From Escherichia phage vB_EcoM_G2540-3, in sequence record MK327944.1: a stretch of 64,000 bases of DNA; one strand, written 5' to 3'. How positions within the stretch are numbered: position 1 is the stretch's first letter; every line of letters starts with the position of its first letter. Below are positions 2,289-63,050 of the stretch, in pieces. The position numbers were made by a program, and so were the translations under genes. The notes beneath the pieces are model-generated. The model ran no database searches, was not told the DNA's origin, and saw nothing but the letters and a program-made list of their open reading frames with translations.

Positions 2289-3707
2289 TTATGGATAGGT
2301 ATAAATGATACCAGTTTCTAAAGCAGTTTTATGAATGATGTATCCATTGCGCGATTCTTGAACATCAACTTCTGGATAGTCTTTCATCATCTTCTGAAGA
2401 GTGTAACGATGCAGGTAGTATTTACTATCTGGATCTTCAGTTTTCCAATCTTTACCTTCTTCAGTCATTTTTTGGATTTCATCCATAACCCACCAACCGC
2501 ACCAGATATAAGCTGAGCTACGATGTGGAAGAGGATGAACATAAGGTAATTCACCTTCTGGTTCCGGAGCAACTTTATCAGTCACTTGAACTTGACCTGT
2601 GGCTTTAACTGTTTTACTATCATAGTCAGTTGCTGTAACGACAGCAGTAACTTCAATAGTTTGACTTCCAATAGATGAGGTATCAACAGTATATACGTTA
2701 GTTGACCCTTCCACAGGAGAAGAATCTTTCTTCCATGAGTAAGTAATTTGTGCTGCTTCAGGTGCGCCATTAACATTAGCAGTAAATGTAGCCGAAGCAT
2801 CTTGCTGAACATTAATAGAAGGAGGAGTCAATGTAACCTGTGGATTCATTGTCTTCTTATTAACTGTCAATGATACTTCATTGGAAGTAACTTCCTTTTC
2901 ATTATAATTTTCTGCAGTTACTTGGGCTACGCATTTAATTCTTTTTACTCCACTTGTAGTTGGAGTATAGTTAAATGTAGAGTTAGTTTCTCCACCAACT
3001 TGTGAATCATCTACATACCACTGATACGTAGCAGACGCTCCGTCAGGTTGAGAAGCTAATGCAGCAGTAAATTGAACCGGGGTTCCAATTACTCCAGCAG
3101 CAGGACTAGCAGGAGTTACTGCCAAGGTAGTTGTCTGTGTCTTTTTATTAACTGTCAATGATACTTCATTGGAAGTAACGCTCAGTGCATCATAATCTGT
3201 CGCAGTTACTTGAGCTACACACTTAATTTTTTTAACTCCGCTTGTAGTAGGAGTATAATTGAATGTAGCAGAAGTTGCTTCGCTCACAGGAGAACCGTCA
3301 ACGTACCATTGATACGTAGCAGATGCGCCCGATGGCTGTGAAGCTAAGGCAGCAGTAAATTCAACGGCTGTTCCGATTACTCCTTCTGGAGGACTATTAG
3401 GAGTTACAGCTAAAGTAGTTGTCTGTGTTTTATTTTGAACTGTAATAGTTGTACTAATTTCAGCTGTTTCAGCTTCAGAATCAGGAATAGTATTTGTTGC
3501 AACTACCTTAATAGTCTTTTGACCAGCAGGTCCTTTTAATACATAATCAAAAGTTGCTGCTGATCCTTCTTGGGGAGCATTATCTACGCTCCAAGCATAG
3601 GTAATAGTTCCACCTCCAGTTTCACCACTGGGTGTAGCAGTAAACTGCTTGGTTTCATCAATAACCCCTGTTGGTGTTTTAGGAGTTATATCAACTGTAA
3701 AAGCCAT
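2289..3707 (-). CDS. hoc: Highly immunogenic outer capsid protein Hoc with tandem Ig-like domains
   Basis: 472 aa with repeated Ig-like modules (…TYQWYVD…FNYTPTTSGVK.IKCVAQVTA…); position between rnlB and inh as in T4. Confidence 0.85.
   Translation of the reverse strand: MAFTVDITPKTPTGVIDETKQFTATPSGETGGGTITYAWSVDNAPQEGSAATFDYVLKGPAGQKTIKVVATNTIPDSEAETAEISTTITVQNKTQTTTLAVTPNSPPEGVIGTAVEFTAALASQPSGASATYQWYVDGSPVSEATSATFNYTPTTSGVKKIKCVAQVTATDYDALSVTSNEVSLTVNKKTQTTTLAVTPASPAAGVIGTPVQFTAALASQPDGASATYQWYVDDSQVGGETNSTFNYTPTTSGVKRIKCVAQVTAENYNEKEVTSNEVSLTVNKKTMNPQVTLTPPSINVQQDASATFTANVNGAPEAAQITYSWKKDSSPVEGSTNVYTVDTSSIGSQTIEVTAVVTATDYDSKTVKATGQVQVTDKVAPEPEGELPYVHPLPHRSSAYIWCGWWVMDEIQKMTEEGKDWKTEDPDSKYYLHRYTLQKMMKDYPEVDVQESRNGYIIHKTALETGIIYTYP
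2858..3433. repeat. Two tandem ~288-bp repeats (approx 85-90% identical) inside hoc encoding duplicated Ig-like domains
   Basis: Motif ttattaactgtcaatgatacttcattggaagtaac recurs at 2858 and 3146; protein shows two near-identical 96-aa modules. Confidence 0.8.
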
Positions 3708-14924: not shown

Positions 14925-15889
14925 TGTATTCTTTAGAGGAATTTAATAATCAAGCAATAAACGCAGATTTCCAACGTAATAATATGTTTAGCTGCGTTTT
15001 TGCAACAACTCCATCAACTAAAAGCTCTTCGTTGATAAGTTCAATTAGCAACTTTTCTTATAATAACTTGGGCCTAAATTCAAATTGGTTAGGATTAACT
15101 CAAGGTGATATTAATCAGGGAATTACCACGCTAATTACCGCTGGCACACAAAAACTAATAAGAAAATCAGGAGTCAGTAAATATCTTATTGGTGCCATGA
15201 GTCAACGTACTGTCCAGAGTTTATTAGGCTCATTTACAGTCGGTACATATTTAATCGATTTCTTTAATATGGCGTATAATTCATCTGGATTGATGATATA
15301 TTCTGTAAAAATGCCAGAGAATAGATTATCCTATGAAACTGACTGGAACTATAATTCTCCTAATATTCGTATAACTGGGAGAGAATTAGACCCTTTGGTT
15401 ATTTCATTTAGAATGGATTCAGAAGCTTGTAACTATCGTGCAATGCAAGACTGGGTTAACTCCGTTCAAGACCCAGTAACTGGACTACGTGCTTTGCCGC
15501 AAGATGTCGAGGCAGATATTCAGGTTAATCTTCATTCTCGTAATGGATTGCCTCATACTGCGGTGATGTTCACCGGATGCATTCCAATATCAGTGAGCGC
15601 TCCTGAGTTATCGTATGATGGAGATAACCAAATAACTACATTTGATGTTACTTTTGCGTATAGAGTGATGCAGGCTGGAGCAGTTGATAGGCAAGCTGCG
15701 CTTGAATGGCTTGAATCTGCTGCTATAAATGGTATTCAAAGCGTTCTCGGAAATAGTGGAGGTGTTACTGGACTATCTAATTCGCTTTCACGACTCAGTA
15801 GATTAGGTGGAACTGCAGGAAGCATTTCAAACATTAATACTATGACAGGAATTGTCAATTCGCAAAGTAAAATATTAGGAGCAATATAA
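14924..15889 (+). CDS. 54: Baseplate-tail tube initiator gp54
   Basis: 321 aa. Confidence 0.88.
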   Translation: MYSLEEFNNQAINADFQRNNMFSCVFATTPSTKSSSLISSISNFSYNNLGLNSNWLGLTQGDINQGITTLITAGTQKLIRKSGVSKYLIGAMSQRTVQSLLGSFTVGTYLIDFFNMAYNSSGLMIYSVKMPENRLSYETDWNYNSPNIRITGRELDPLVISFRMDSEACNYRAMQDWVNSVQDPVTGLRALPQDVEADIQVNLHSRNGLPHTAVMFTGCIPISVSAPELSYDGDNQITTFDVTFAYRVMQAGAVDRQAALEWLESAAINGIQSVLGNSGGVTGLSNSLSRLSRLGGTAGSISNINTMTGIVNSQSKILGAI

Positions 15890-15893
15890 CAAT

Positions 15894-15923
15894 GGGGACC
15901 GAAAGGTCCCCATATTTTTATTT
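15894..15923 (+). terminator. Intrinsic terminator after gene 54 (ggggaccgaaaggtcccc plus T-run)
   Basis: Perfect hairpin followed by tttttattt. Confidence 0.65.
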
Positions 15924-16208
15924 ACGGAATGAAATGAAAGCAGCAACTGAAGCAACTAAACTGTCTTCAATATAAACTTCAATTTTTACCGGAGCTTCTG
16001 ACTCAAATTTACCTGTTACTACACCCTGAAAAATACTTTCAGTCTGTTCTGGCTTTGAAAAATTTTCAGAAGGAAAAATTCCAAACTTTTTATCTGTTCC
16101 GAAAATTTTGATAAATTCATCATAAACTGCTTCATTAAAAGCATTATCAGCAGGAATAACGCCTTCAACTACAAGTTCTTGACCTAAAAAGCGTAAAGAA
16201 GATTTCAT
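15918..16208 (-). CDS. Hypothetical protein (alt.-3 position)
   Basis: 96-aa ATG ORF with SD gagga; preceded by promoter/leader cassette identical to the one upstream of alc. Confidence 0.6.
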   Translation of the reverse strand: MKSSLRFLGQELVVEGVIPADNAFNEAVYDEFIKIFGTDKKFGIFPSENFSKPEQTESIFQGVVTGKFESEAPVKIEVYIEDSLVASVAAFISFRK

Positions 16209-16209
16209 T

Positions 16210-16262
16210 TTGTGTTCCTCATGTTATGTCAGTAAGACTACTATAACACAACACGAGGGACT
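16210..16262 (-). promoter_or_regulatory. Early-promoter-like cassette (GTTTAC…TATAGT) with leader and SD; 53-bp identical copy of 29508-29560
   Basis: Minus-strand reading gtttacaagtccctcgtgttgtgttatagtagtcttactgacataacatgagg; identical at both loci. Confidence 0.55.
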
Positions 16263-16626
16263 TGTAAACTACATTTTGAACTTTTTAGTACGCGTAATAG
16301 GCATGCGTCGATTTTATACTGTTTCATTGTTTGAAGAGCAGTATCAAAAACAGCATTAATGACACCAATTGGATTTCCACCCAAGTTTTTAAGCTTAACT
16401 AATGATAGTTTCTCATTAACACCTATCATTACGATATGCATCATTTTATCGCCCGGCTTAACGTTTTATTCGTATCACCGCCAGAGGTGTATGTACAAAA
16501 TCTAAATCCAGGAAGCACGCTTTCTTCGCCGGCTTGAATAGCAAAAATTTGTGGTATTTTATGCTTAGGATTTAAGTTAACAACCGGCGCCGAAGCGCCG
16601 TCAAATAATTCTGTAATAAGTTCCAT
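16241..16626 (-). pseudogene. Decayed partial copy of the alt 5' end (Alt N-terminal ~130 aa, internally frameshifted)
   Basis: Two ORFs (61 and 67 aa) in different frames that align with Alt residues ~2-62 and ~64-130. Confidence 0.6.
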
Positions 16627-16629
16627 GAT

Positions 16630-18739
16630 TTATCCTTGAACGAACTTGTAAGGCATGTTTGCAATATCTATGCAAGACGCAATAATTCCAAGAGATGATT
16701 CTACTTTCTGTTTAACATTTGATGAAACAAATGATGCAAAGTCAACTCTATCTTCTATATCACCTGTCATTGTAACCAATTCACCAGTTTCCATTAAACG
16801 GTCACCGTCATAGATTACCGATTCGGTGAGTTCTTCTGTGGTCATAACTTCAGCTTGAATAAGCTTGTTGTTAGTTCTAACTGTTCCATCGTTGTAAGAT
16901 GCATCGGTTATTTTATTAACTTTGACCATTAATCCACGTGGCAAAATGACTTCCATTTCATTTGAAGGCGCTAAACTTCCACCGGGTAAAACAACATTGA
17001 CCTTATCAGCCCCAGTAATAACCCGCTAAACTTCCACCGGGTAAAACAACATTGACCTTATCAGCCCCAGTAATAACCCATCCAATTCCAACTAAATTAT
17101 CGCTAGAATTTACTAGTCCTTCATCAGTTTTATCAATAGAAACACTTAGACGCTTTTCGTCTGGTAAAACACCTATAGATGAATCAGTCATCCAAGTACC
17201 AAAAATATTTGGATATAATGATGTTGACACAAAGTTTCTAAAATAAAAAACTCGATTTTTTACCATTGCTTCATATATTGAAGGTAACATTCGTTGTGAA
17301 CGATACAAAGTAATACCTTTTGGTAATCGTTCACCATTTTTAAAGGCTGAATCTAAATTATCAATGGCTTGTTCTATTTCAGGTGCTGTTAAAATACTTG
17401 TACGCTCATCTGGATTATATAATCCCAAAAGAGCATTATTTATGTCTACATATCCTGAACCTACATATTCACGAATTCCGCGTTTTTGCGCTGGTGTGTA
17501 TTTAGATGAATCTTTATTTTCGACTATAGGATGTAATGACCATCCAGCGGTAAGAGCATATCCACGTAATTCTCTTCGAATAATCTTTGTTTTTATTGCA
17601 TTCCAAGAATTTTGCACTAACTCATTATTCGCAGCGTCTTGATTTAAATGCGAATGTCTGTTAATATTTCTTTCAAACCAGGCACCTTTATATTTTTCTA
17701 AAGTATCATCGACGATAGAAGCAATAGTTTCTAAAGTTTTTATTGAAGTAATAGATTCTTTTCGTAATTTTTCTAAAGCTTTATTTTTTATTTCTGCATT
17801 AATAATGGATTCTTTATCTTCAGGAATTATAGAAGCTTCTCTGAATGCCATCCCAGCTGTAACACTGCTAAGAGCATTCTCTAGTGCAAATCCTGAAGTA
17901 GAAATTACCGTTAATTCATTAGAATCAGAAATTAAAGGCGCGTCCGCTGGTTTATTTAATTCTGCCGCTGAAGCCTCAAATTTTTGAAACATCGGTGTTT
18001 CAAATCTAGAAGATTCCAATGACTGACTTTGTGCAATTGCTCTACGGGAAATTTTAACTTTAACGATTACAGCTTGGTCAGAACGTTTATCATTTTCTTG
18101 TGCAATAGATGCTGCAATTGCCTCATTTTTAGTTACTTGAGCTCCAGTATCTTTATTGATATAAACATCACCGACCTTCGATTCAACTTTAGTAAAGAGC
18201 TCGGTACTAATTTCCGGAACCCCTGGAATGTCTTCTAGTGATACATTTTTGCGATGTATAAGAATATATGCATACTTTTTATCATAATCCCAGAGTTCCT
18301 TAAGAAGGACGTATCTGCCACCTGAACGACTACGGATAAGTCTATCAGCAATAACTTGAATTTGTCGAGCTTGGCCAGCAGTTTTAGACTTAAGAATACG
18401 AAGCATACAAGCATCAATTTTATACTGACGCATTGTTTGCATTGCAACAGTAAAAACCGAATTGATATAATTAATTGGGCTTGGACCAAGACCTTTCAAT
18501 TTAGCAATTGAACCTTTAGCGGTTAATGTAAAAGGAACAATATGCATCATTTTATCGCCCATCTTTAAATCACGATTAGTATCACCTCCAGATGTATAGG
18601 TACATAAACGAAAGCCTGGTTGTTCAATTGCGTCATCAACATGAACTGAAAAAATTTGCGGTATTTTCTTCTTTGGATTTAAGTTTGTAATCGGAAGAGT
18701 AGTATCTTCGTCAAATAATTCTGTAATTAGTTCCATCAT
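16630..18739 (-). pseudogene. alt: ADP-ribosyltransferase Alt, interrupted by a 55-bp tandem duplication (577-aa N-part plus 108-aa C-part in shifted frame)
   Basis: Removing one 55-bp copy restores one continuous ~684-aa frame (…VVLPGGSLAPSNEMEVILPRG…), close to the 682 aa recalled for T4 Alt. Confidence 0.8.
16970..17079. repeat. Perfect 2 x 55-bp direct tandem repeat
   Basis: gctaaacttccaccgggtaaaacaacattgaccttatcagccccagtaataaccc occurs twice back to back (16970-17024 and 17025-17079). Confidence 0.9.
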
Positions 18740-18749
18740 ATCCTCTCTA

Positions 18750-18780
18750 GTGTTTATTCTATTTATAAAATTAAAGGCCC
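18750..18780 (-). terminator. Intrinsic terminator upstream of alt (aaaggcccgaaggccttt)
   Basis: Hairpin followed by T-run on minus strand. Confidence 0.55.
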
Positions 18781-18788
18781 GAAGGCCT

Positions 18789-18977
18789 TTAGTAATCTAG
18801 TGGTAAGAGAGTACGATATATTTCAAACTTTGGTCCTTTTTCATAGGCATCAAATGTTTCTGTGAATTTATTATAAGCGTATGCATCTACAAATTCGAGA
18901 ATGACTTGTGATACAGAAGTAGAAACATCTCCACCTTCTTTTTGAGCAATGACAATTGTTTCTAAGTAAGCTTTCAT
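18789..18977 (-). CDS. Hypothetical protein
   Basis: 62-aa ATG ORF overlapping the ligase stop by 4 nt (ATGA coupling). Confidence 0.5.
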   Translation of the reverse strand: MKAYLETIVIAQKEGGDVSTSVSQVILEFVDAYAYNKFTETFDAYEKGPKFEIYRTLLPLDY

Positions 18978-20437
18978 AGACCAGTTACCTCATGAAAATC
19001 ACCAAATACATCTTCGAACGTATTAGCTTTAGTTTTATCTTCGCGTAAACGAATCGCAATCGGAAGAAATAATTTAACGTAATCAGTGCGGCCATCAGAT
19101 TTTAACCAACCGTTGCATTCGCACTCTAGAATTTTTCCAATATAATAATTTTGGTTTTCCATAATGCGAGTACGGTCAAGTTCATGCGATTTTACACCGG
19201 CTTTATCTTTTAAGCCTGAACCAGCATTTACCTTAATTTTTCCACACTCTGACTCAAGAATAAATCCACCTGCTTTAGTAGGGTCTTTACGGTGAGGATA
19301 AATTCCTACAATTTTTAAATCAACATCAATTACTTCTTTAAATTTATAGAGATTTTTTGAACGAGCATTTTCCCATAATCCATCGATATTTTTGAGAATA
19401 ATACCTTCAAGACCTTGGTCAATATACTTTTTATAAATTACCTTAGCTTCATCTAGGTTATTTACTACCTGGTTTTCAATTAAAATTACTTTATCATAGC
19501 CTGATGTCATTTGTTCTAGTTTAGAAAAACGTACATCATATTTCAAACGAAATGCAGGAAGACCGTATATTTCTACCAACGGAACATAATCCCAGACCTG
19601 AAACTTCATGCATTGAGCTTCTTTTTCAGAAATGGTTCCCTTTAAAGATTTATTGGCGATGCCATTAGATGCAGTACGTGATTCAGCTACTTCTGTGAAG
19701 TCTTTAACTTTACTGTTTTCAGGATGAGCATCAAAAAGAAAATCTAGGCCTTCTGGCTCCTTTTTAACTTGCTCATGGTATACCAATTCGCCATCAATTA
19801 ACACGCCTTCTGGATGAATCTGGCGGGCTTCAGCGGTCATTTTGATTAATTCTTCCTTAAGAAGATCTAATCCTAGATATTCATTACCGGCTCGTGATAA
19901 AAGACGAACATCATCTAATTCATCACCTCTGACTTCGGCAAAGCACCGAGCCCCATCAGCTTTTAACTGGGCAAAGGCTGGAAATTTGATATTCTTATTA
20001 ATGCCTTTTTCATCATAAGAACTTGCAAGCATTTGAGGTTGTTCAGGAATTAAACCTGGCCAAACTTTGTTTGCAATAGATACTGAAGCACCACATTCAA
20101 GGTCTCGCATCATCACTCGACGCAAAACTTCAACATCATCTTTTTTACCATCGGTGATATATCCAGATAATTCCTCAATTGCCGCATTTCCGGTCAATTT
20201 CCGAGTAGCTAACGTGAATTCAATGAAGTCAAGCATATCGGTAAGAGTCAACATTCCAAAACTCTGGGTAGCAATACCAGGTTTAGGCCATTTCTTAATA
20301 TAATACTGCAACCCACGAGAATAAGTCAGACGATATACTCGTTTAAGCAATTCATTATCTTTATTCTTTTCAAGAATTGCTTGCTTCTGCTTAGTTGAAC
20401 CAATAGATGCTATTTCGTTCAGAATTTTAAGAATCAT
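18974..20437 (-). CDS. 30: ATP-dependent DNA ligase
   Basis: 487 aa, adenylation motif KADGARC; N-terminus MILKILNEIASIGSTKQKQAILEKN as T4 ligase. Confidence 0.95.
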   Translation of the reverse strand: MILKILNEIASIGSTKQKQAILEKNKDNELLKRVYRLTYSRGLQYYIKKWPKPGIATQSFGMLTLTDMLDFIEFTLATRKLTGNAAIEELSGYITDGKKDDVEVLRRVMMRDLECGASVSIANKVWPGLIPEQPQMLASSYDEKGINKNIKFPAFAQLKADGARCFAEVRGDELDDVRLLSRAGNEYLGLDLLKEELIKMTAEARQIHPEGVLIDGELVYHEQVKKEPEGLDFLFDAHPENSKVKDFTEVAESRTASNGIANKSLKGTISEKEAQCMKFQVWDYVPLVEIYGLPAFRLKYDVRFSKLEQMTSGYDKVILIENQVVNNLDEAKVIYKKYIDQGLEGIILKNIDGLWENARSKNLYKFKEVIDVDLKIVGIYPHRKDPTKAGGFILESECGKIKVNAGSGLKDKAGVKSHELDRTRIMENQNYYIGKILECECNGWLKSDGRTDYVKLFLPIAIRLREDKTKANTFEDVFGDFHEVTGL

Positions 20438-20703
20438 TATTTATCCTTCAGAGTTTGATTTACAGTTCTATTATAAATCAATTCATCATTAAGCTCAGGC
20501 AAAGACTTATGATATGTAGTTCTAACTTTATTTCCTTGCATCCAGTGCTTGACGTAAATGAAACCTTGCTCTACACATTTTTTAAAAATTCGTTCGTCTT
20601 TTTGAGCTCGGAATTCTGGATTGCATCTAAAAAATTGATTTACGTGACCGTAATCACGTGTAGTATTACCTTCATTTTCATAAATAGTGTGAACAACAAA
20701 CAT
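20437..20703 (-). CDS. Hypothetical protein (30.1 position)
   Basis: 88-aa ORF. Confidence 0.6.
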   Translation of the reverse strand: MFVVHTIYENEGNTTRDYGHVNQFFRCNPEFRAQKDERIFKKCVEQGFIYVKHWMQGNKVRTTYHKSLPELNDELIYNRTVNQTLKDK

Positions 20704-21542
20704 TAGAATGCTCCTTGGAAAATATTATCACCACAAGTAGGTCTATTATACAAATACTCTATACCGCCGGGTTTAATATAGTTCCATGTCTGAAACGGAT
20801 GCGTCTGATATGGATGATATAGATGATTATAAGGATTAAATCCAGGAGTTCTCCAGGTAGTGTTCCAAGGAAAAGAATCGTTTTTAATCATCTTTTCAAT
20901 TACATCTTTTATAGCTTTTTCACTATCAAAACTTTCTTTATTTTCCTTTGGTGAAAAAAGCTTATTCTCTACATCGTTCCATGTATAAACTCGCTGAGCA
21001 GTTTTTGGAATACTGTCACGTTCCCCTCGAGCCATCCAATAAACAGGAACACTTAATATTTCACTCGCGTGGTCGCAGTGGTGAGCGAGATCGTCAATAT
21101 AACAAATTACGTTATATTTCTCTTTTGCCTTTTTGAACAACTCTTCTTTTGAAGAATCATGACCACACATCAGTACTTCTGAGAAGGCACCAGGAAAAAG
21201 AGCATTCAAATTAAATTGACGATTCAGCAGAGCGTCAATAGAATCACCCAGTGCTGTAACAGCTACAAAATTATAATCTTCTTTTAATTTGTTAATTACA
21301 CACAGGGCATCTTTATATGGCGACAAGTAACGAATAAAATCTGAACGATTGTATTTTTCAATTAGCTTAACGCCAAGTTCTTCATCACAATTAAAAAGTT
21401 TACCAGGAGAAATAAATTTCTCATCTTGGATCATTTTTAAAATATGTTCTAACGGAAGATTATATTTCTGAGCAAAATAAGGAAGGCCTGATTGCCAGCT
21501 TAAACATACTCCATCAATATCAGTTAAAATAGTAGGCTTCAT
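20703..21542 (-). CDS. HAD-superfamily phosphatase-like protein (30.2 position)
   Basis: 279 aa with N-terminal DxDGV motif (LTDIDGVC). Confidence 0.65.
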   Translation of the reverse strand: MKPTILTDIDGVCLSWQSGLPYFAQKYNLPLEHILKMIQDEKFISPGKLFNCDEELGVKLIEKYNRSDFIRYLSPYKDALCVINKLKEDYNFVAVTALGDSIDALLNRQFNLNALFPGAFSEVLMCGHDSSKEELFKKAKEKYNVICYIDDLAHHCDHASEILSVPVYWMARGERDSIPKTAQRVYTWNDVENKLFSPKENKESFDSEKAIKDVIEKMIKNDSFPWNTTWRTPGFNPYNHLYHPYQTHPFQTWNYIKPGGIEYLYNRPTCGDNIFQGAF

Positions 21543-22003
21543 AGAGAGTCTCTTAATAGGTTTAACACATCAATAAATTCAGCTTCGGTTAGTATTGTAT
21601 CATCTTTTGTTAGACCACTAGCCATGCTGTGCTTCAAAACTTTTCCTTTCGAGGCTAGTAATGCATCACGAAAGCCCTTGTTTTGAATCGCTGCTTCAAA
21701 ATATGCATTTGTGTATAATTCTTTCCACGCCGGGGAGTATCTTGAAAACGGAACTCCGAGCCAGAAGAGGGTCCCACGGTCCTGAGCTCTTGCATAAGAC
21801 CTTCCAGCTTGCTGTGCGGCAAGCCCGGATAACCCAAATATACGACGTTGTTGTTCAACATTTTTCACCTTACACCCTTGGAGGAATCCTTCGAGACCTC
21901 CAAATTGAATACCATCCATGACGAAAGGCCATTGGGCGAAATTACTTAATGCACATGATGGCCACCTAAAATTGCTTCTAATCTCTAACTCAGACATTTT
22001 CAA
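21539..22003 (-). CDS. YbiA/NADAR-like protein (30.3 position); likely true ATG start near 21997
   Basis: Motif CALSNFAQWPFVMDGIQFGGLEGFLQGCK resembles YbiA/NADAR core (FSNFAAWP…DG…); first track codon is TTG. Confidence 0.6.
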   Translation of the reverse strand: MKMSELEIRSNFRWPSCALSNFAQWPFVMDGIQFGGLEGFLQGCKVKNVEQQRRIFGLSGLAAQQAGRSYARAQDRGTLFWLGVPFSRYSPAWKELYTNAYFEAAIQNKGFRDALLASKGKVLKHSMASGLTKDDTILTEAEFIDVLNLLRDSL

Positions 22004-22196
22004 TGCTTATAATTTCAACATCAGCCCAATGACCATAGCAAGGAAGACGAAATTCAACTGGCCAGTTAGGGTCCTTTTCTAATATAATAGACTCAACTCG
22101 TGGTTCTTCACGTTCATCAGTATATGGATTTTTATCTGTTACTTTATATGTGACCTTAATGTACTGAATTCCAAAAATCTTATTAATTATATTCAT
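21990..22196 (-). CDS. Hypothetical protein
   Basis: 68-aa ATG ORF in operon-like array. Confidence 0.5.
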   Translation of the reverse strand: MNIINKIFGIQYIKVTYKVTDKNPYTDEREEPRVESIILEKDPNWPVEFRLPCYGHWADVEIISIENV

Positions 22197-22390
22197 ACTA
22201 ATTCCTTTAATCCGTAGATAGGAGATAATTCATCACCCATACGAAGGTCTTCATTTCCATCTACCCAGGAAACAATATAAGCCTCTTTTATTTGAATACC
22301 ACTCCATTTAAATGGAGGTAGAACCTTAGAAATTAATCCAGGTATACCAACTCCCTTTAATTCAACAGTTTGACCTAAAAAGAATTTCAT
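22193..22390 (-). CDS. Hypothetical protein
   Basis: 65-aa ATG ORF. Confidence 0.5.
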   Translation of the reverse strand: MKFFLGQTVELKGVGIPGLISKVLPPFKWSGIQIKEAYIVSWVDGNEDLRMGDELSPIYGLKELV

Positions 22391-22677
22391 TAGAACCTCA
22401 TCTGAAAACCGTGCGATTTAACATTACCGCCGCCAATATCAGAAATGTTAATTTCACGCGCAATTGAAGGGTCAATGTCAATTTCGCGATTGAGTTTAGT
22501 GATAGCTAAAGTATCACGCCCATTTACAGTACGGAACTCTAGAGGACAAACCACATTAACGTAGTTTTTAATCGATTCACTGGTAGGTTGCAAATGAGCA
22601 GGAAGGTCTTTAGGCGCCTTAGAAAAAACCACTTCACAGAAGTTTTTACGAGTATCAAAATAAGTAGTCATAAACAT
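22390..22677 (-). CDS. Hypothetical protein
   Basis: 95-aa ATG ORF. Confidence 0.5.
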   Translation of the reverse strand: MFMTTYFDTRKNFCEVVFSKAPKDLPAHLQPTSESIKNYVNVVCPLEFRTVNGRDTLAITKLNREIDIDPSIAREINISDIGGGNVKSHGFQMRF

Positions 22678-22718
22678 AGTATTTTCCTCAGCAAGGGGCC
22701 GAAGCCCCTCATTTTATT

Positions 22719-23084
22719 TTAAATATCAAATTCGTTAAGAACTACATCAAAGATTGCTTCAAGATGCTCAGGTTTAGCTCTATTACTCAGAATATGACGA
22801 ATCCAAGTTTTAACCAGAAGCTTGCGATTAACGCCATTCCAGCAAGGATGAGTCCCTAAATCGCGTTGACGAAAATCATCATCCAAAGCAATTTTGAAGT
22901 TGGAACCTTCCATTGTGATTGAAACCGTGATGCCATTTTCAAATCGCATATAAACGTAGTTAGGAGTCATATACTGTTCAATTTCGCATACTGATCCATT
23001 TTGATGTTTCCAAAGGCAGATAGTATCAATAGAACCTGCAATACCATTAGAAACATATTTACGTTCAAAGTTGATGTAGTTCAT
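22719..23084 (-). CDS. Hypothetical protein
   Basis: ATG at 23084 with SD ggaga (track ORF begins at upstream TTG). Confidence 0.5.
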   Translation of the reverse strand: MNYINFERKYVSNGIAGSIDTICLWKHQNGSVCEIEQYMTPNYVYMRFENGITVSITMEGSNFKIALDDDFRQRDLGTHPCWNGVNRKLLVKTWIRHILSNRAKPEHLEAIFDVVLNEFDI

Positions 23085-23151
23085 TTTATTCTCCAAGATG
23101 TTTAATTGCGGTACAGGTATATAATATCATATCCTGTACCAAAGTAAACAA

Positions 23152-23484
23152 TTATTTTACTACTTTCCAATGCTGCATGTCAAGTTTACCAACTTTTTTC
23201 ATCTTCTCAATTAAGCGTTCGGCACGTTGGCGAGCTGTAACATAATACCATTCACCTAATTCATTTTGTTCAATTTTTCCAACGATTACTGTATTCAATT
23301 CATAAATCCAACCAGTAAAGAAATTATGAACTTGAATTGTAAAGGTGAAATCTGTTCCCATACCTTCTGTTGTTTCTACTTCAATAATATCACCTTCAAC
23401 TGCCATTAAAAACCACATAGTTTCATCATATTTACCATTGAAGCATTTAGTTTTAACCGCAGCGTTCAGATTAATCGTTTTCAT
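23152..23484 (-). CDS. Hypothetical protein
   Basis: 110-aa ATG ORF. Confidence 0.5.
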   Translation of the reverse strand: MKTINLNAAVKTKCFNGKYDETMWFLMAVEGDIIEVETTEGMGTDFTFTIQVHNFFTGWIYELNTVIVGKIEQNELGEWYYVTARQRAERLIEKMKKVGKLDMQHWKVVK

Positions 23485-23557
23485 TTTATTCTCCTTTGTT
23501 TGTGTAAGATAATACTATCACAAAGGAACCATACTGTAAACAACTTTGTGCAATCTT

Positions 23558-23590
23558 TGGAAAATAAAAAAGGACTCCCGAAGGAGTCCT
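23558..23590 (-). terminator. Intrinsic terminator (aaggactcccgaaggagtcctt plus T-run) downstream of the basic small protein
   Basis: Perfect hairpin, T-run on minus strand. Confidence 0.6.
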
Positions 23591-23594
23591 TAAC

Positions 23595-23771
23595 TTATGC
23601 TTTCTGCTTACCAAAACGAGAAGCATCATCTCGAAGAACCGCACGTGCTCGGCGCATGATCTTCTCAACAGTTTGATTGATACGAGAGTTCGACCCACGC
23701 TTGTAACCAGCGCGTTTAGAATCACCAACTTTCTTTTCAACTGCTTTCTTTGCTTTAGCTTGTTTTGCCAT
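23595..23771 (-). CDS. Small lysine/arginine-rich protein (30.9 position)
   Basis: MAKQAKAKKAVEKK… 58 aa from ATG at 23771 with SD aaagag; followed by terminator. Confidence 0.55.
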   Translation of the reverse strand: MAKQAKAKKAVEKKVGDSKRAGYKRGSNSRINQTVEKIMRRARAVLRDDASRFGKQKA

Positions 23772-24016
23772 TATAAATTCTCTTTTAAATGAAAATGCAG
23801 GACTTATTGGCATTGCCTGCGCAAGCCCTCAAGGGGAACATAGGTTTTTGGATATTTAACGACCAGGATAACCATAAACCCGTCATCATTCACATTCAAG
23901 AGGTACACCATAAAACTGCCGGGGTCTTAAAACTATAATGATTCGCAAATCATTAATCAGACAGTTCGATGGCTCCTCGATTTTAGCTCACACTAAGGCA
24001 GTGACTCTCCAATAAA

Positions 24017-24265
24017 TTACTTCAGTGTTACCACAAAGTGACGAACTGCTTTTCGTGCAGCAGAAGCCAAAGGCTTAGCATATTTAAGTTCATCTTTTTC
24101 CTGAAGCTCAGCAGCTAATGCAGTTTGAGCAGGATTTAGATGTTTGAAATAACGCAGGATTTCAAGAGCTTCGGCTTCAACATCAATAGATGCGCCATAG
24201 TTTTCGTGACCATTATTCCATGCGTTTCGTTGCAGTTCAAGAGCGTGTTGTAATTGTTTAATCAT
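24017..24265 (-). CDS. rIII: rIII lysis-inhibition accessory protein
   Basis: 82 aa, MIKQLQHALELQRNAWNNGHENYG…, position next to gene 31. Confidence 0.85.
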   Translation of the reverse strand: MIKQLQHALELQRNAWNNGHENYGASIDVEAEALEILRYFKHLNPAQTALAAELQEKDELKYAKPLASAARKAVRHFVVTLK

Positions 24266-24412
24266 TTAAAAATTCTCGTTAGAGATTAAAACTCGGTAGT
24301 CACGTTCTTCTGAATTTCATCTTCTTTCGACAGATCTCTCAGTTGTAGACTACCACGTAGAATTGTTCGGTTAACTTATTATTCCGACACCCAATTCATA
24401 TTATTATTTATA

Positions 24413-24748
24413 TCACTTATAAAGACATGGAATAGCTTTATAGTGGCAAGTGACGAATTTTTGTTTAATTTCTTTTGGCTGCTTAAGACCCAGAGCTACA
24501 AAAGGATGCGGAACGTTTCGAATTTGACCAACTGGAAGAGAAGTCAAATCACCAACTTCACAAAAACCTTCAGGAACATCATGACCGACAGAGTGAATTA
24601 CACACAGTTCAGGAACTTCACCTTGAACACGTTTACCGATAATAAGTCCTGATTCTGTAACTTCTTCATCACCGGCTTGTGCAGGTTCAGAAACTAAAAT
24701 AACATATTCACCTACAGCACGAATTGGTAGCTGTTGTACTTCAGACAT
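24413..24748 (-). CDS. 31: Co-chaperonin gp31 (GroES analogue)
   Basis: 111 aa, [22 protein letters not shown]…. Confidence 0.9.
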
Positions 24749-24804
24749 CGTTTTTCCTTTTTGTTAACAGATGAATTAATAATAACAAATAATTCTTAAA
24801 GCAT

Positions 24805-25113
24805 TTATTTACCAATAAATTGAAGCAAATGCTCAACTTTCATACCATTAACGGAAATCAATTTGTCAATAGAAAAACCTCGCCATGCACCAAGCTCAAC
24901 ATCAAATACTGGAATCATGTCAGTAGATTCTTTCCGAGTAGATTCAGTCAATTTGCCAGTTTGCATGGTTGGCATAAAGTCTGCATCACGAGTACCTTTC
25001 ATAGTACGAATAGTACCGTCAGACTTTTCAAAAACTACGTTTGAAATACCCATGGACAATTTAGTTTTTAAAATTTCGCGAATTGCTACTTTCTGCTCAG
25101 TTGTCAGTTTCAT
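24805..25113 (-). CDS. Hypothetical protein (31.1 position)
   Basis: 102-aa ATG ORF. Confidence 0.55.
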   Translation of the reverse strand: MKLTTEQKVAIREILKTKLSMGISNVVFEKSDGTIRTMKGTRDADFMPTMQTGKLTESTRKESTDMIPVFDVELGAWRGFSIDKLISVNGMKVEHLLQFIGK

Positions 25114-25350
25114 TTATTTACCTATCACAGTTTTAATATGAGTTGTTCCACGTTCTTTAAGGGTGGAAAGTAATTTTTGGCATTTTTCTAAATCAGATTT
25201 CCAACTATATGGTCTATCAATACTAGTCCAATCAGTTTTATAATACTGTTTCCATTTAGAGAAAAAATATTTCTTATACTCTACAGCAAATGAGATGTTC
25301 TCATTAGAATAAGAACTAATTGCTGTGAGCTTTACCAAACGAAATTTCAT
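25114..25350 (-). CDS. Hypothetical protein (31.2 position)
   Basis: 78-aa ATG ORF. Confidence 0.5.
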   Translation of the reverse strand: MKFRLVKLTAISSYSNENISFAVEYKKYFFSKWKQYYKTDWTSIDRPYSWKSDLEKCQKLLSTLKERGTTHIKTVIGK

Positions 25351-25931
25351 TATTCACCACAGAATTCGTTGATATTTTCCCAGTTTAACTTATTCAAGTT
25401 TTTCTTAGGAACATTAAACACTTCAATACCTGCATTTCGCAGAATATCATCCCAACCAGGTTTATTTTTATCGTATGTTTCACAATAAACCAGCTTTTTA
25501 ATTCCAGATTGAGCTATTGCTTTTGCACAATCTGGGCAAGGAGAAAGTGTTACATACATAGTAGCACCTTCAATAGAAGAACCATTTCGTGCAGCAAACA
25601 AAATTGCATTTAGTTCAGCATGAATTTCATTTTTAGATGACCATTCCGAGTGAGCACTACGATGTTCTTTCGCCAAGACAAAACGATCAGTTGAACCAAA
25701 TGATACGCATTCAGGCTTATGGCCTTGAATGATAGTATGTTTAGGCTTATTCAACAACCATCCTTGCTCAGCAGCATAATCACAACAGTTCACACCTCCT
25801 GCGGGTGAACCATTATACCCAGTAGAAATAATACGTCCATTCTTTTCAATTACTGCTCCTACCTTCCAGGAGCAACATTTTGATTCCTGCGATACTAAAT
25901 ATGCAATTTGAAGTACTGTACTCGCTTTCAT
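25350..25931 (-). CDS. cd: dCMP deaminase
   Basis: 193 aa, zinc-binding motifs HAELNAI and PCPDCAKAI. Confidence 0.93.
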   Translation of the reverse strand: MKASTVLQIAYLVSQESKCCSWKVGAVIEKNGRIISTGYNGSPAGGVNCCDYAAEQGWLLNKPKHTIIQGHKPECVSFGSTDRFVLAKEHRSAHSEWSSKNEIHAELNAILFAARNGSSIEGATMYVTLSPCPDCAKAIAQSGIKKLVYCETYDKNKPGWDDILRNAGIEVFNVPKKNLNKLNWENINEFCGE

Positions 25932-26266
25932 TTCATAATCACCAGATAAGCAGATTTAGTAGTTTCAACACGATAAATTTCGTGACGAAGTTTAGTTATA
26001 CTTTTAATAACAGAACTAATTATATTCTGCCCATCTTTAAAGCGGTTTTTCTTATCAATAAAAACTGCGCCAGTCATCTTTTTGTGAAGCTCAACTGGAT
26101 ACTTCGTCACAATAATAGCATCATACACAGAAGGATGAATACTATTCACCAGAGTATCATTCATTAAAGTTATTCTAATGAACTTTGCTGTTTCAGAGTC
26201 AAGCGCTCTATGATCACCAGTATCATTTTCAAGACAATTATCAATTATATCAGTTAAATTCATCAT
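25928..26266 (-). CDS. Hypothetical protein (cd.1 position)
   Basis: 112-aa ATG ORF. Confidence 0.5.
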   Translation of the reverse strand: MMNLTDIIDNCLENDTGDHRALDSETAKFIRITLMNDTLVNSIHPSVYDAIIVTKYPVELHKKMTGAVFIDKKNRFKDGQNIISSVIKSITKLRHEIYRVETTKSAYLVIMK

Positions 26267-26502
26267 AGTACGCCATACACCCTTTGTGCTTCAACTAATC
26301 CATCAAAATCCAATTTGAGATGTGTTATTTGATCACCATCACCTGGATTCACAATTACTAATACTGAACGAGGAGTTTCGGTAATAACACGAACCGATGT
26401 TTCAGGAAATCGTTCAGAAACCTTATTTACTAATTCCTGTGCAAATAGTTTAACTTTTTCTTGGAATTCTTTAACAGTAATTGGTTTTTCACTTAGCAGC
26501 AT
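26263..26502 (-). CDS. Hypothetical protein
   Basis: 79-aa ATG ORF. Confidence 0.5.
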   Translation of the reverse strand: MLLSEKPITVKEFQEKVKLFAQELVNKVSERFPETSVRVITETPRSVLVIVNPGDGDQITHLKLDFDGLVEAQRVYGVL

Positions 26503-26563
26503 TTTGTTTTCCTCATTTGTTTGGTAGAGCTATAATATCACAACTCTACCGTAAAGTAAACTA

Positions 26564-26839
26564 TTAAATCGCTTTGAATTCCGCAGTTTGAGATTCAAAG
26601 CGAATGTCGCCTTTGATAACTAACTCAGCATCAAGACCGAATACAACAATGATATGCGCGGAACCTGGATACAGCGTAATGGCAACAGAATCCACCTGGT
26701 CTGGAAGCAAAGTGTTCAATACATGAGTCACTTGAGCGTGGATTCGAAGCTCAGCTGCATTATCAAGTTTTTCAAACATATTATTAGCTATAATTTGGCT
26801 AAACACTACTTCTACGATTTTAGAGTAAGTCGGAAACAT
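26564..26839 (-). CDS. Hypothetical protein
   Basis: 91-aa ATG ORF. Confidence 0.5.
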   Translation of the reverse strand: MFPTYSKIVEVVFSQIIANNMFEKLDNAAELRIHAQVTHVLNTLLPDQVDSVAITLYPGSAHIIVVFGLDAELVIKGDIRFESQTAEFKAI

Positions 26840-26903
26840 ATTTACCTCACATAATTTTCTTCAAGCCAATTAATAATATCCCAAGTTTCATGGTGCAAAG
26901 CCA

Positions 26904-28129
<1,226 letters not shown>

Positions 28130-28132
28130 TTA

Positions 28133-28363
28133 TTATTTCTCAACCAATGATTGAATATAATCATGCAGGTCTTTAGATGCTTTACCCCACTTATTTTGGT
28201 ATTCATTTTTAAGATTAGCCCGAGATTGAGCTAATAAAACATCATTAGTTGGAGGTAAAGATTCTAATCGCTGAATCTGGCGTCCATAAATCATTGCAGC
28301 CATCTCGGATTCATAAATCAATCCTTTGAGATGTTCAAATTGATGCCATGAAATCATTTGCAT
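28133..28363 (-). CDS. Hypothetical protein
   Basis: 76-aa ATG ORF. Confidence 0.45.
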   Translation of the reverse strand: MQMISWHQFEHLKGLIYESEMAAMIYGRQIQRLESLPPTNDVLLAQSRANLKNEYQNKWGKASKDLHDYIQSLVEK

Positions 28364-28653
28364 TTATCCTCTTTTAACTCTTGACGATAATAACATATCA
28401 TAGTTTTCTGATCATGTACATATCGTTTTACATCATTAAGCCAAATGCGAAATTCCTGGGAATCTTCAAATGGCATACCGACCCAAGCTTTACCATCAAT
28501 AACTTTAACTTGCCAGGATAGTTTAGCTTCATCGTATGACTTTATTTGTACTGGCCAATTAGGATGAACTGTTTCTTTCTTTACTTCTAGAGGCTTTGTC
28601 GAACAACCAACTAGAAGACCAATAGATAATATTACTGCTGATAGTCTAATCAT
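28354..28653 (-). CDS. Outer-membrane lipoprotein, probable o-spanin (pseT.2-like)
   Basis: Signal peptide with lipobox LLVGC; immediately downstream of a membrane-anchored coiled-coil protein. Confidence 0.6.
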   Translation of the reverse strand: MIRLSAVILSIGLLVGCSTKPLEVKKETVHPNWPVQIKSYDEAKLSWQVKVIDGKAWVGMPFEDSQEFRIWLNDVKRYVHDQKTMICYYRQELKEDKCK

Positions 28654-29003
28654 TTAGAAAGGTCCTGGATGTCTTCTGCGAACTTGTTGAAGGAGTTGTT
28701 GATTTGTTTTTCAACCAATCCTGGCTTATGAGCCACCACATCCGCCTTCTTTGCGTCTTTGCGCAGTTTTTCATTTTCACGCTCAATAGCAGCAATTGCC
28801 TCACGATTTTTATTATTCATCGCATCAATATAATTATACTGAATTCGCAAATTATTTAATGCTAAAGCGTTTTCATTGGCCGTTTTTGTAATTTCTACAA
28901 CAGACGTTTCTAATCTTTCAATTTTATTTTTTAAAATTAAAGAAGTTCCGCCCAATGCAATTACAATTAATAACAAGCCTGCTGTCGTATTACTTAATTG
29001 CAT
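28650..29003 (-). CDS. N-terminally membrane-anchored coiled-coil protein, probable i-spanin (pseT.3-like)
   Basis: N-terminal TM helix (GLLLIVIALGGTSLIL) followed by charged helical region; 4-nt overlap with the lipoprotein gene. Confidence 0.6.
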   Translation of the reverse strand: MQLSNTTAGLLLIVIALGGTSLILKNKIERLETSVVEITKTANENALALNNLRIQYNYIDAMNNKNREAIAAIERENEKLRKDAKKADVVAHKPGLVEKQINNSFNKFAEDIQDLSK

Positions 29004-29500
29004 AAAGTTTTAATAACCTCTATAATATCGTCTTGAGAAAGACCGTTAATTAAAATATGATGTTCAGCCGGAGATTTAGAAATTTTAAAGCATGCCTCAA
29101 CATCTTCTGCCATATCCGATGCGCTACGATTTGGATTACTAATCCCAAGGCGGTGTTTTCCCGTCAAAGGATTAACGATGATATAGCATTTACAACTATT
29201 GATATGAACATTAGGCTGAGTCTGATTAATGAACACTTCACAATCATACTTAGCGAGTTGATTTTCTAAAAAGACTTTCATCTCTTCAACCGCATCAGGA
29301 AGCATATCACGGGCTTGCTCAAGACGACGATTTCGATATTCTTTAATGGTCGTTTTCCGCTTGACTTGCTTAGCTAAATCTTTCTTAAGATCGGTGATAT
29401 ATCCAACTCGACGATTTCCTTTGAATACAGAAATCCCATCTGTAGTATCACCGTATGCTTCAACGACCATTTCAGTAGTAATAAGTTGTAAATCCATCAT
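28994..29500 (-). CDS. alc: Alc, inhibitor of host transcription
   Basis: 168 aa at the T4 alc position between pseT region and rnlA. Confidence 0.7.
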   Translation of the reverse strand: MMDLQLITTEMVVEAYGDTTDGISVFKGNRRVGYITDLKKDLAKQVKRKTTIKEYRNRRLEQARDMLPDAVEEMKVFLENQLAKYDCEVFINQTQPNVHINSCKCYIIVNPLTGKHRLGISNPNRSASDMAEDVEACFKISKSPAEHHILINGLSQDDIIEVIKTLCN

Positions 29501-29507
29501 AAAGTCC

Positions 29508-29560
29508 TCATGTTATGTCAGTAAGACTACTATAACACAACACGAGGGACTTGTAAACAG
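29508..29560 (-). promoter_or_regulatory. Early-promoter-like cassette upstream of alc; identical to 16210-16262
   Basis: Same 53-bp sequence including -35 GTTTAC, -10 TATAGT and SD gagga. Confidence 0.55.
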
Positions 29561-29561
29561 C

Positions 29562-31149
<1,588 letters not shown>

Positions 31150-41439: not shown

Positions 41440-41545
41440 ATCAGCAGTATTGCCGATAGTTGTATAGTACCATGGAATGACAAGGATGTAAACCGTTTTG
41501 TGAAAAAATTTTTGAAATAAAAAGGGGACCTCTAGGGTCCCCAAT
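41440..41545 (-). promoter_or_regulatory. PeSL-like cassette: terminator hairpin (ggggaccctagaggtcccc) after gene 32 plus early-promoter-like element; shares a 36-bp identical core with 58300-58335
   Basis: gtaaaccgttttgtgaaaaaatttttgaaataaaaa identical at both sites, each followed by a GC hairpin. Confidence 0.5.
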
Positions 41546-58254: not shown

Positions 58255-58360
58255 AGTTCATTTATTTGATAGTTGTATAGTACCACAGTATGCTTTGGTT
58301 GTAAACCGTTTTGTGAAAAAATTTTTGAAATAAAAAAGGGAGAGCCTCGGCTCTCCCTAA
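58255..58360 (-). promoter_or_regulatory. PeSL-like cassette: terminator hairpin (gggagagccgaggctctccc plus T-run) and early-promoter-like element
   Basis: Shares 36-bp identical core with 41491-41526. Confidence 0.5.
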
Positions 58361-61445: not shown

Positions 61446-61454
61446 ACAACTTTT

Positions 61455-62804: not shown

Positions 62805-62825
62805 ACAAAAGGGCCGAAGCCCTTA
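62805..62825. terminator. GC hairpin (agggccgaagccct) flanked by A/T runs
   Basis: Inverted repeat read directly; same hairpin motif recurs at 63041-63058, 22691-22710, 2269-2284 and 7264-7277. Confidence 0.45.
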
Positions 62826-62827
62826 TT

Positions 62828-63022
62828 TTATTTGAATTGTGCAATTCTTTTCTCTAGACATTCAGCATAAGATTTCATTGAGATAAACTGCGAAAGTAAC
62901 AGTTCTTGCTCAACTGCATTAACTGTTAGAAACTTTGTGCTTTCTAAAAATTTGCTCAGTGCATTAATTTTTAGCATTAATTGATCGTATTCTTCTTTTA
63001 CTCGTGCTTGATAACCTAACAT
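62828..63022 (-). CDS. Hypothetical protein
   Basis: 64-aa ATG ORF between rIIB and denB region. Confidence 0.5.
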   Translation of the reverse strand: MLGYQARVKEEYDQLMLKINALSKFLESTKFLTVNAVEQELLLSQFISMKSYAECLEKRIAQFK

Positions 63023-63050
63023 AATTTTCCTTAGTTAAGGGCCGAAGCCC

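Follow-up and report, generated by a model that had tools for sequence, protein, structure and literature searches.

The DNA analyzed (hereafter the window) is a stretch of 64,000 nt from Escherichia phage vB_EcoM_G2540-3 (MK327944.1), a Tequatrovirus with about 98% identity to T4. Near the two sites described here, identity with T4 and phages closely related to it is 98-99%. Two genes on the minus strand, alt.-3 and alc, are preceded by the same 54-bp cassette. Copy A ends 7 nt upstream of the alt.-3 open reading frame (ORF) and overlaps the end of alt.-2, which is the remnant of a second alt gene. Copy B lies between rnlA and alc, separated from the preceding rnlA stop codon by 3 nt and from the downstream alc by 4 nt. 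In the original prediction the two downstream genes had been given as a 96-aa ORF and as alc, respectively. Coordinates of all features are collected in Table 1.

Table 1. Features of the two cassette loci and of a second repeat pair in the window (strand relative to the sequence as given; promoters, start sites and hairpins are predictions)
Feature	Coordinates	Strand	Description
Copy A, 54-bp cassette	16216..16269	-	Exact repeat; upstream of alt.-3, overlapping the 3' end of the alt.-2 pseudo-ORF (T4T annotation)
Copy B, 54-bp cassette	29505..29558	-	Exact repeat; between the rnlA stop and alc start codons (annotation of relatives)
alt.-3, 96 aa, DUF5498	15918..16208	-	Gene served by copy A; ORF list, Pfam DUF5498 (1.4e-64)
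alc, 168 aa, inhibitor of host transcription	28994..29500	-	Gene served by copy B; ORF list, tblastn and relatives' annotation
Copy A sigma70-type early promoter	16240..16268	-	-35 TTTACA 16268-16263, 17-nt spacer, TGt, -10 TATAGT 16245-16240; predicted +1 near the A at 16233
Copy B sigma70-type early promoter	29529..29557	-	-35 29557-29552, -10 29534-29529; predicted +1 near 29522
Predicted RNA hairpin, alt.-3 copy	16214..16261	-	Same stem as in the alc copy; SD GAGGA 16220-16216 in the 3' arm
Predicted RNA hairpin, alc copy	29502..29552	-	About 22 bp, one bulged C, 3-5 G.U pairs; SD GAGGA 29509-29505 in the 3' arm
3'-end remnant of ancestral second alt gene	16270..16288	-	...ttcaaaatgTAG; directly upstream of the copy A -35
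Bidirectional terminator hairpin	15892..15913	.	Between gene 54 and alt.-3; ends the alt-to-alt.-3 unit; annotated terminator in e11/2 and Lutter
Late-promoter motif TATAAATA	18760..18767	-	About 20 nt upstream of alt; candidate source of late read-through across copy A
Second pair, copy 1	41487..41523	-	AT-rich UP-like stretch and -35 (TTTTTATTTCAAAAATTTTTTCACAAAACGGTTTACA); preceded by terminator hairpin GGGGACCCTAGAGGTCCCC, about 41524-41542
Second pair, copy 2	58300..58336	-	37-bp core as in copy 1; another terminator hairpin, GGGAGAGCCGAGGCTCTCCC, about 58338-58357, lies upstream

A repeat search and a pattern search both returned an exact direct repeat, positions 16216-16269 being identical to positions 29505-29558 (minus-strand reading GTTTACAAGTCCCTCGTGTTGTGTTATAGTAGTCTTACTGACATAACATGAGGA). 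The original prediction had placed 53 identical bp at 16210-16262 and 29508-29560. On alignment the identity held; the length was corrected to 54 bp, and the coordinates moved by up to 7 nt. The identity breaks off sharply at both ends, the flanks matching at random level only. None of 100 dinucleotide-preserving shuffles contained a match to the 54-mer, with 3 mismatches permitted. The expectation that the identity would extend beyond promoter consensus was also borne out: similarity among the other early promoters of the window is 60-90%, and neither the 17-nt spacer nor the leader of this pair follows the consensus. Convergence, that is, selection on an optimal promoter and leader without copying, could appeal to the extended consensus of T4 early promoters beyond -35 and -10 (PMC2988021) and to the 88-92% identity over 36-74 nt that is reached within other promoter families of the window. 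However, the 54/54 match includes a spacer and leader matching no other promoter in the window, the orthologous promoters diverge between RB69 and IME08 at these sites, and the shuffles gave no match; this reading, already contradicted, retains a nearly negligible probability.

In both copies the promoter reads TTTACA-N17-TGt-TATAGT, with 10 of 12 consensus matches plus the TG element in a consensus scan, and is followed by a leader of about 18 nt and a Shine-Dalgarno sequence (SD), GAGGA. All minus-strand elements originally proposed (-35 GTTTAC, -10 TATAGT, leader and SD GAGGA) were recovered by sequence reading and the consensus scan. The sequence upstream of the -35 lies outside the repeat in both cases, being AT-rich rnlA coding sequence (ttttttgaaaaattataaaaaattt) at the alc copy and ctaaaaagttcaaaatgta at the alt.-3 copy. 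A promoter is annotated at the site of copy A in phage Lutter and at the site of copy B in Lutter and fPS-65; the T4 RefSeq record carries no annotated promoters. Judging from these elements, transcription from either copy would start at the predicted +1. A literature search returned no transcription-start, structure-probing or translation data for either site, and no T4 start data set. In T4, alc and alt.-3 are both classed as early RNA and early protein, rnlA, upstream of alc, as early RNA but late protein, and the RNA of alt.-1 and alt.-2 as middle (PMC9697503 supplements).

Other elements were considered within the cassette and discarded. A RegB site in the Tequatrovirus leader was rejected as GGAG is absent, and a late or MotA promoter within the repeat as neither TATAAATA nor a MotA box occurs on either strand. 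An intrinsic terminator was rejected on the lack of a U-tract after the stem described below, none being called by the terminator scan. An upstream mini-ORF (AUGAGGA...UGA, overlapping the start codon) was dropped, as it lacks its own SD and is not the same in the two copies. No Rfam family matches the cassette, the sole match in 15500-30500 being a sub-threshold hit to Atu_C8 at 23556-23639.

Distribution of the 54-mer was determined in the INPHARED phage collection (50,697 records). Matches were found in 499 records at 997 places, with two copies per genome at the same two loci and no third copy. All matching records are T4-type phages, and Tequatrovirus wherever the taxonomy was read. The better-matching copy is identical to the 54-mer of the window in 257 records, 1-2 nt off in 237 and 3 nt off in 5; strict E-value cut-offs do not cleanly separate perfect copies from those with one mismatch. 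In T4 itself the copies are identical at 53 of 54 positions, the alc copy being canonical and the alt.-3 copy carrying G40A. A common variant, T27C (TATAGT to TACAGT), is matched perfectly in 115 records, in most of the matches listed at the alc locus and at one place per record. A scan of IMG/VR with the 30-nt promoter part gave 6 loci only, too few for population analysis.

The repeat had been attributed to recent recombination or module shuffling. Neither 'recent' nor 'shuffling' agrees with these data: the pair occupies two places in every one of the 499 matching records, the T4 copies differ by 1 nt, and T27C is mostly restricted to alc among the matches listed. Moreover, the genes downstream of both copies are syntenic across at least five genera; a comparison of flanking genes found alt.-3 beside gene 54 and alc beside rnlA in Mosig-, Dhaka-, Karam- and Marfavirus. 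As judged from these genome comparisons, the duplication is old, fixed and not mobile, and the perfect identity in the window is one allele combination; since the pair is fixed at the same two loci in 499 genomes, perfect identity here is no sign of a recent event. What stands of the proposed recombination is the copying of one promoter and leader over another.

Perfect identity could alternatively result from ongoing ectopic gene conversion (concerted evolution), the window having caught a recent event. Homology of less than 50 bp suffices for recombination in T4 (PMC2839356), and ACG-C40 carries T27C in both copies. KRT47 has a perfect T27C match at the alt.-3 locus, and its record is one with two places; two places occur in 5 of the 147 T27C records. 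Against this, T27C is confined to one place, at alc, in most of the listed matches among the 115 genomes, the T4 copies differ at G40A, and ordinary recombination between phages can also reassort alleles that lie 13 kb apart. The variation seen (257 identical, 237 with 1-2 differences) matches a divergence of 2-5% within the genus, so that no conversion is needed. Occasional ectopic conversion between the copies is possible, though not required; as the explanation of the identity, ongoing conversion is unlikely.

The cassette had further been likened to promoter-early stem-loop (PeSL) elements. A PeSL consists of a terminator stem-loop, an AT-rich stretch, a sigma70-like early promoter and an SD with start codon; PeSLs cluster in hyperplastic regions and border ORFan indels (PMC2839356; PMC4122927). 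The cassette resembles them in its early promoter, which fits the PST/T4 consensus TTTACW-N17-TAYWAT, in the SD and start codon at its 3' end, and in being repeated in the genome with homology long enough for T4 recombination. For the 54-bp pair the label was nevertheless withdrawn: no stem-loop or terminator lies upstream, there is no common AT-rich part, the -35 marks the start of the identity, and the flanks ahead of it consist of coding sequence. The stem-loop of a PeSL is a GC-rich terminator upstream of the promoter, whereas that of the cassette spans promoter and SD. The surroundings differ as well, the cassette being flanked by conserved genes instead of ORFan indels.

That the copies are a PeSL-type mobile regulatory cassette and serve as recombination substrates for active or recent shuffling of modules, as originally proposed, would agree with the ends of the identity, which coincide with the conserved boxes of the -35 and the SD. 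Short homologies suffice for recombination in T4-type phages, and recombination at PeSLs is documented (PMC2839356). In addition, 19 nt separate copy A from the end of a deletion in the variable region of the second alt gene. Since homology to the window ends at 16288 in roughly 410 of 503 relatives (an alternative flank was seen in L007), position 16288 is, on this comparison, the endpoint of the T4-type deletion that produced alt.-1 and alt.-2. This endpoint is outside the repeat, however, and the absence of an upstream stem-loop and of a common AT-rich part, the constant two copies at the same loci in 499 genomes and the synteny of the downstream genes all speak against a mobile element. 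Excision between the copies would probably be lethal, the intervening 13.3 kb carrying DNA ligase, gene 31, cd and pseT. Mobility of this kind is considered very unlikely. One element of the PeSL idea, recombination at conserved promoter boxes, is retained below.

A better example of a PeSL is found in the second repeat pair of the window. An identical core of 36 bp next to terminator hairpins had been reported at 41491-41526 and 58300-58335; the identical core and the adjacent terminators were confirmed, and its length was revised to 37 bp (41487-41523 and 58300-58336), and it forms part of a 74-nt stretch with 88% identity. The PeSL label fits this pair, in which an AT-rich stretch and an early promoter follow a GC-rich terminator hairpin that differs between the copies. 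No promoter-spanning hairpin was predicted by folding of the second pair.

The main feature of the 54-bp unit, absent from the original prediction, is an inverted repeat by which the promoter spacer pairs with the SD. In the predicted RNA hairpin, the 5' arm is formed by the promoter spacer (AAGUCC-C-UCGUGUUGUGUU), the loop by the -10 and the start region, and the 3' arm by the leader with the SD (GACAUAACAUGAGGACUU). Folding against shuffled sequences gave a dG of -24.5 to -27.3 kcal/mol (z -3.9 to -5.7) for the alc copy and of -23.0 to -23.3 kcal/mol (z -4.2 to -4.5) for the alt.-3 copy, with at most 1 shuffle per 200-300 as stable as either hairpin in any run and none as stable as that of the alc copy. 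In the predicted fold, 4-5 of the 5 SD nucleotides pair with bases that precede the start. An RNA that begins at the predicted +1 folds into almost no structure (dG -1.8 kcal/mol for alc and -1.0 kcal/mol for alt.-3). Because of its G.U pairs, the sense RNA folds more stably than the antisense (-24.5 versus -15.4; about 6-9 kcal/mol in Tequatrovirus).

Within the genus, most variants can be accommodated by the stem. G16A and G40A convert G.U into A-U pairs, an extra G in ACG-C40 fills the bulge and lowers dG to -32.9, and T27C, G32A, T33A and C34T fall in loops or at unpaired positions. G29A (-10 TATAGT to TATAAT) shifts the apical pairing, and another variant changes the top pair of the long stem. 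A disruptive variant, G18A, occurs in the alt.-3 copy of UFV-AREG1 and weakens the stem to -16.8.

At alc, a promoter spacer complementary to the SD was also found in other genera, the predicted hairpin being built there from different sequences. Arms are UCUCCUCAU/AUGAGGAGA in Dhakavirus (z -3.6), UCUCCAUUUGGUU/AACCAAAUGGAGA in both Karamvirus (z -7.5) and Moonvirus (z -6.8), and AUCCUCGUCAG/CUGAUGAGGAU in Jiaodavirus (z -4.8). Marfavirus has a weaker version (z -2.6), and in Gualtarvirus (z -4.0) and Aeromonas phage 31 (z -2.4) the SD is sequestered in the predicted fold by a 5' arm that is shifted. The hairpin is absent from alc of RB69 (Mosigvirus) and Acinetobacter phage Ac42, and is therefore not indispensable. 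RNAalifold on a plain MAFFT alignment of eight alc leaders gave no consensus structure, as the arms are not alignable by sequence. The covariation argument was accordingly based on a register anchored on the -35, together with per-sequence folds against shuffles. In this register, pairing of spacer nucleotides 2-10 with the SD region recurs in six lineages through differing pair types, and the SD core is paired at 4/4 positions in 8 of 9 sequences. These folds suggest that an SD-sequestering architecture is conserved at alc. As far as could be checked it has gone unremarked, though the older T4 literature may hold an earlier description.

The inverted repeat might instead serve as an RNase III or RNase E site at which upstream mRNA is cut off, a 3' stabilizer of rnlA or alt mRNA, an attenuator, a DNA cruciform that helps promoter melting or recombination, or an operator for a dimeric protein. 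The Tequatrovirus stem of about 22 bp has sufficient length for RNase III, the antisense fold is as stable as the sense fold in Karam-, Moon-, Jiaoda- and Dhakavirus, and the promoters at 26560, 23148 and 40768 have hairpins that straddle the -10 without including an SD (z -3.1 to -4.6), which hints at a role tied to the promoter and not to the ribosome-binding site. Yet it is the pairing of the SD core that is conserved across genera and not the length of the stem, which varies from 9 to 22 bp. A U-tract is lacking after the stem, the sequence covaries where a protein operator would be conserved, and the G.U pairs in Tequatrovirus, Gualtarvirus and Aeromonas phage 31 favor sense RNA over DNA. 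Such roles are together held to be distinctly improbable, and sequestration of the SD in RNA is the preferred reading of the inverted repeat.

The hairpin also bears on the direction of copying. In RB69 (Mosigvirus) and in IME08 (Dhakavirus), early promoters occupy both orthologous positions, and within each genome neither is a copy of the other. The alt.-3 promoters of RB69, IME08, VR5, Marfa and EnC15 represent one conserved type, GTTTACAaCACCACAnGGATGTGGTAcTAT...ACAAACAtGAGGAg; for the five sequences it can also be written as GTTTACAaCACCACAnGGATGTGG... or as CACCACATGGATGTGG-type. This type is present in Dhakavirus, Bp7 and phages of Serratia, Enterobacter and Klebsiella, and absent among the Tequatrovirus records listed. 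Compared with it, the Tequatrovirus 54-mer differs in a 36-nt core and has the left box GTTTACAA and the right box AACATGAGGA in common. Sequence identity does not name the donor, 37-43 of the 54 positions matching either outgroup type. None of the five outgroup alt.-3 promoters has an SD hairpin (z -1.3 to +0.6). Since a hairpin is predicted at alc of several outgroups and at none of the outgroup alt.-3 promoters, the Tequatrovirus cassette is of the alc type, and it is the alt.-3 site that appears to have been overwritten.

The following course of events is proposed, its direction resting on this shared structure. The native site of the cassette would be ahead of alc. A copy of the alc cassette would then, in the common ancestor of Tequatrovirus, have replaced the core of an older, unrelated alt.-3 promoter, probably by recombination or conversion, with junctions within boxes GTTTACAA (left) and AACATGAGGA (right). 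As the identity ends at boxes common to both ancestral promoters, recombination at promoter and SD motifs is plausible, and the copy most likely arose by recombination at these conserved boxes. Both copies would then have been kept at fixed loci, with a drift of 0-3 nt.

Transcripts from upstream would have to cross both copies. The terminator scan found no terminator from denA/rnlA to alc, and, on the minus strand, none that is convincing from the late-promoter motif of alt to alt.-3, so that read-through into both copies is unavoidable. Probable sources are rnlA and nrd transcripts for alc and a late alt transcript for alt.-3. In such read-through RNA, the promoter spacer would pair with the leader and bury the SD in the hairpin of about 22 bp. 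RNA from the cassette's own promoter would start in the loop or 3' arm and would therefore lack the 5' arm, leaving the SD free. Given that this RNA is without the 5' arm, promoter-dependent translation is the likely function of the cassette: Alc and Alt.-3 would be translated only while the early promoter fires, and shut-off of the early promoter would end their translation even if read-through RNA persisted. The T4 omics timing given above fits translation confined to the early phase without proving it. Taken as a whole, the reading in which the alc early promoter, leader and SD were copied onto alt.-3 in a Tequatrovirus ancestor, together with a hairpin that confines translation to the promoter's own RNAs, is considered slightly on the probable side. 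At alt.-3 the hairpin may be a neutral passenger, outgroup alt.-3 promoters functioning without one. Ribosomes that reach the end of rnlA, 3 nt before the -35, might partly open the alc hairpin, which counts against gating at that site.

Comparable arrangements are known from T4 e (lysozyme), soc, 49 and I-TevI and from Aeh1 mobE, where the SD is held in a helix in long RNAs and RNAs from an internal promoter, lacking the 5' arm, are translatable (PMC3014915). The geometry predicted for the cassette is identical to that of the T4 genes, with the -10 in the loop and the predicted +1 at the border of loop and 3' arm. In those genes, however, a late or middle promoter delays translation, whereas the cassette has a sigma70 early promoter and would be expected to confine translation to the early phase. 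A further difference is that the 5' arm of the cassette is the promoter's own spacer between -35 and -10. The promoters also resemble the T4 early 'über' promoters, described as UP/-35/TGn/-10 (PMC2988021), in the -35 GTTTACA, the TGn, the -10 of TAnnnT type and the very early genes downstream. They differ from these in that the repeated unit contains no UP element, the identity spans the non-consensus spacer and leader, and the hairpin complementarity is outside the described consensus.

The repeat alone would be ordinary, an old promoter duplication already present in T4. If the hairpin works as predicted, it would account for the strictly early synthesis of Alt.-3 and of Alc, the immediate-early terminator of host transcription, from genes that middle and late transcripts cross. 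The T4 promoter-in-hairpin switch would then extend from late to early promoters, and such a switch could be moved to another gene as a 54-bp unit. The cassette would also give a concrete and inexpensive way to study by experiment why early protein synthesis declines in T4, a process that is poorly understood.

Early promoters of the window that are followed by an SD and an ORF were folded in the same way, and a promoter-spanning hairpin with z of -3 or lower was predicted in 6 of 14. A general and undescribed Tevenvirinae design, in which early promoters lie inside SD-sequestering hairpins, with alc as its archetype in at least five genera and alt.-3 as a transplanted device, can be put forward tentatively but is thought rather less probable than its opposite. 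Under such a design a gene would be translatable only from RNA of its own early promoter, and the silencing of early promoters would halt translation while middle and late read-through RNA is still abundant. At least 4 of the 5 SD bases are paired upstream of the start for the promoters of alc and alt.-3 and for those at 61446 and 26560. For the last of these, pairing of the SD comes from a weak outer stem, the main hairpin straddling the -10. All 5 SD bases are likewise paired for the promoter at 23540, with a z of only -1.5.

Outside the two copies of the cassette (a 54-bp exact repeat on the minus strand that carries an early promoter and leader), further early promoters in the window also lie within predicted hairpins, in which the spacer between the -35 and -10 boxes pairs with the start of the transcript. 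The five minus-strand sites are listed in the table. In other genera (RB69, IME08, VR5, Marfa and EnC15), the spacer of the ancestral alt.-3 promoter holds a conserved small palindrome, CCACAnGGATGTGG. Promoters closely resembling this ancestral type occur two to four times per genome, for example before cef in Klebsiella phages.

Predicted promoter hairpins, promoters with a spacer palindrome and recurrent terminator-like hairpins (z, fold stability relative to shuffled sequences; L, alt.-3 upstream sequences of other genera)
Feature	Position	Strand	Description
Early promoter hairpin	61446->61389	minus	15-bp stem ACUGUUCUUCCGUGG/CUACGGAGGAACAG, SD buried, predicted dG -22.7, z -4.5
Early promoter hairpin	23540->23484	minus	SD paired too; predicted z only -1.5
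Early promoter hairpin	26560->26502	minus	straddles -10; predicted z within -3.1 to -4.6
Early promoter hairpin	23148->23084	minus	straddles -10; predicted z within -3.1 to -4.6
Early promoter hairpin	40768->40714	minus	straddles -10; predicted z within -3.1 to -4.6
Promoter with spacer palindrome, upstream of alt.-3	L010 460-505, L011 370-412, L025-L027		RB69, IME08, VR5, Marfa, EnC15
Terminator-like hairpin (repeat families D6/D10)	22681-22718, 62809-62834, 63024-63061, 2256-2293

The genes alt.-1 (16441-16626) and alt.-2 (16241-16444) are what is left of the N-terminal part of a second alt paralogue. Repeats D12 and D16 were located about 2.1 kb from alt, the compared regions being 16270-16640 and 18380-18740, and a note in the T4 RefSeq record traces alt.-1/alt.-2 to an old duplication that copied the first part of alt. 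Upstream of 16288, approximately 410 of 503 relatives diverge from the window, and a full-length alt-like gene is annotated there.

The alt gene itself, encoding the RNA polymerase ADP-ribosyltransferase, was found by the repeat search of the window to contain a perfect 55-bp tandem duplication (16969-17023/17024-17078), which divides it between a 577-aa ORF (17006-18739) and a 108-aa ORF (16630-16956); T4 alt has 682 aa (2049 nt). In the closest relatives the 55-bp segment is single-copy, a 191-nt query matching as two pieces over 136 nt. The duplication is either a private frameshift mutation of the vB_EcoM_G2540-3 isolate or an assembly artefact.

A 288-nt tandem repeat with 79% identity (2850-3137/3138-3425) was detected within a 472-aa minus-strand ORF (2289-3707), which is Hoc-like and carries Ig and PKD domains. 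The Hoc-like protein of phage Lutter measures 376 aa; therefore, that of vB_EcoM_G2540-3 appears to have one additional Ig-like domain of about 96 aa.

The same search returned imperfect repeats at 46244-47166 (families D5 and D9, ACTCC(A/T)(G/A)AAA...ACTGCTAC) that recur about every 108 nt and point to a protein built of repeated segments of about 36 aa. A terminator-like hairpin, (A/G)GGGCCGAAGCCC(C/T), recurs at distant sites. Finally, an Rfam hit at 23556-23639 (minus strand) to the Rhizobiales sRNA Atu_C8 fell below threshold (32.5 bits, gathering score 50, E = 0.003) and is probably due to chance.
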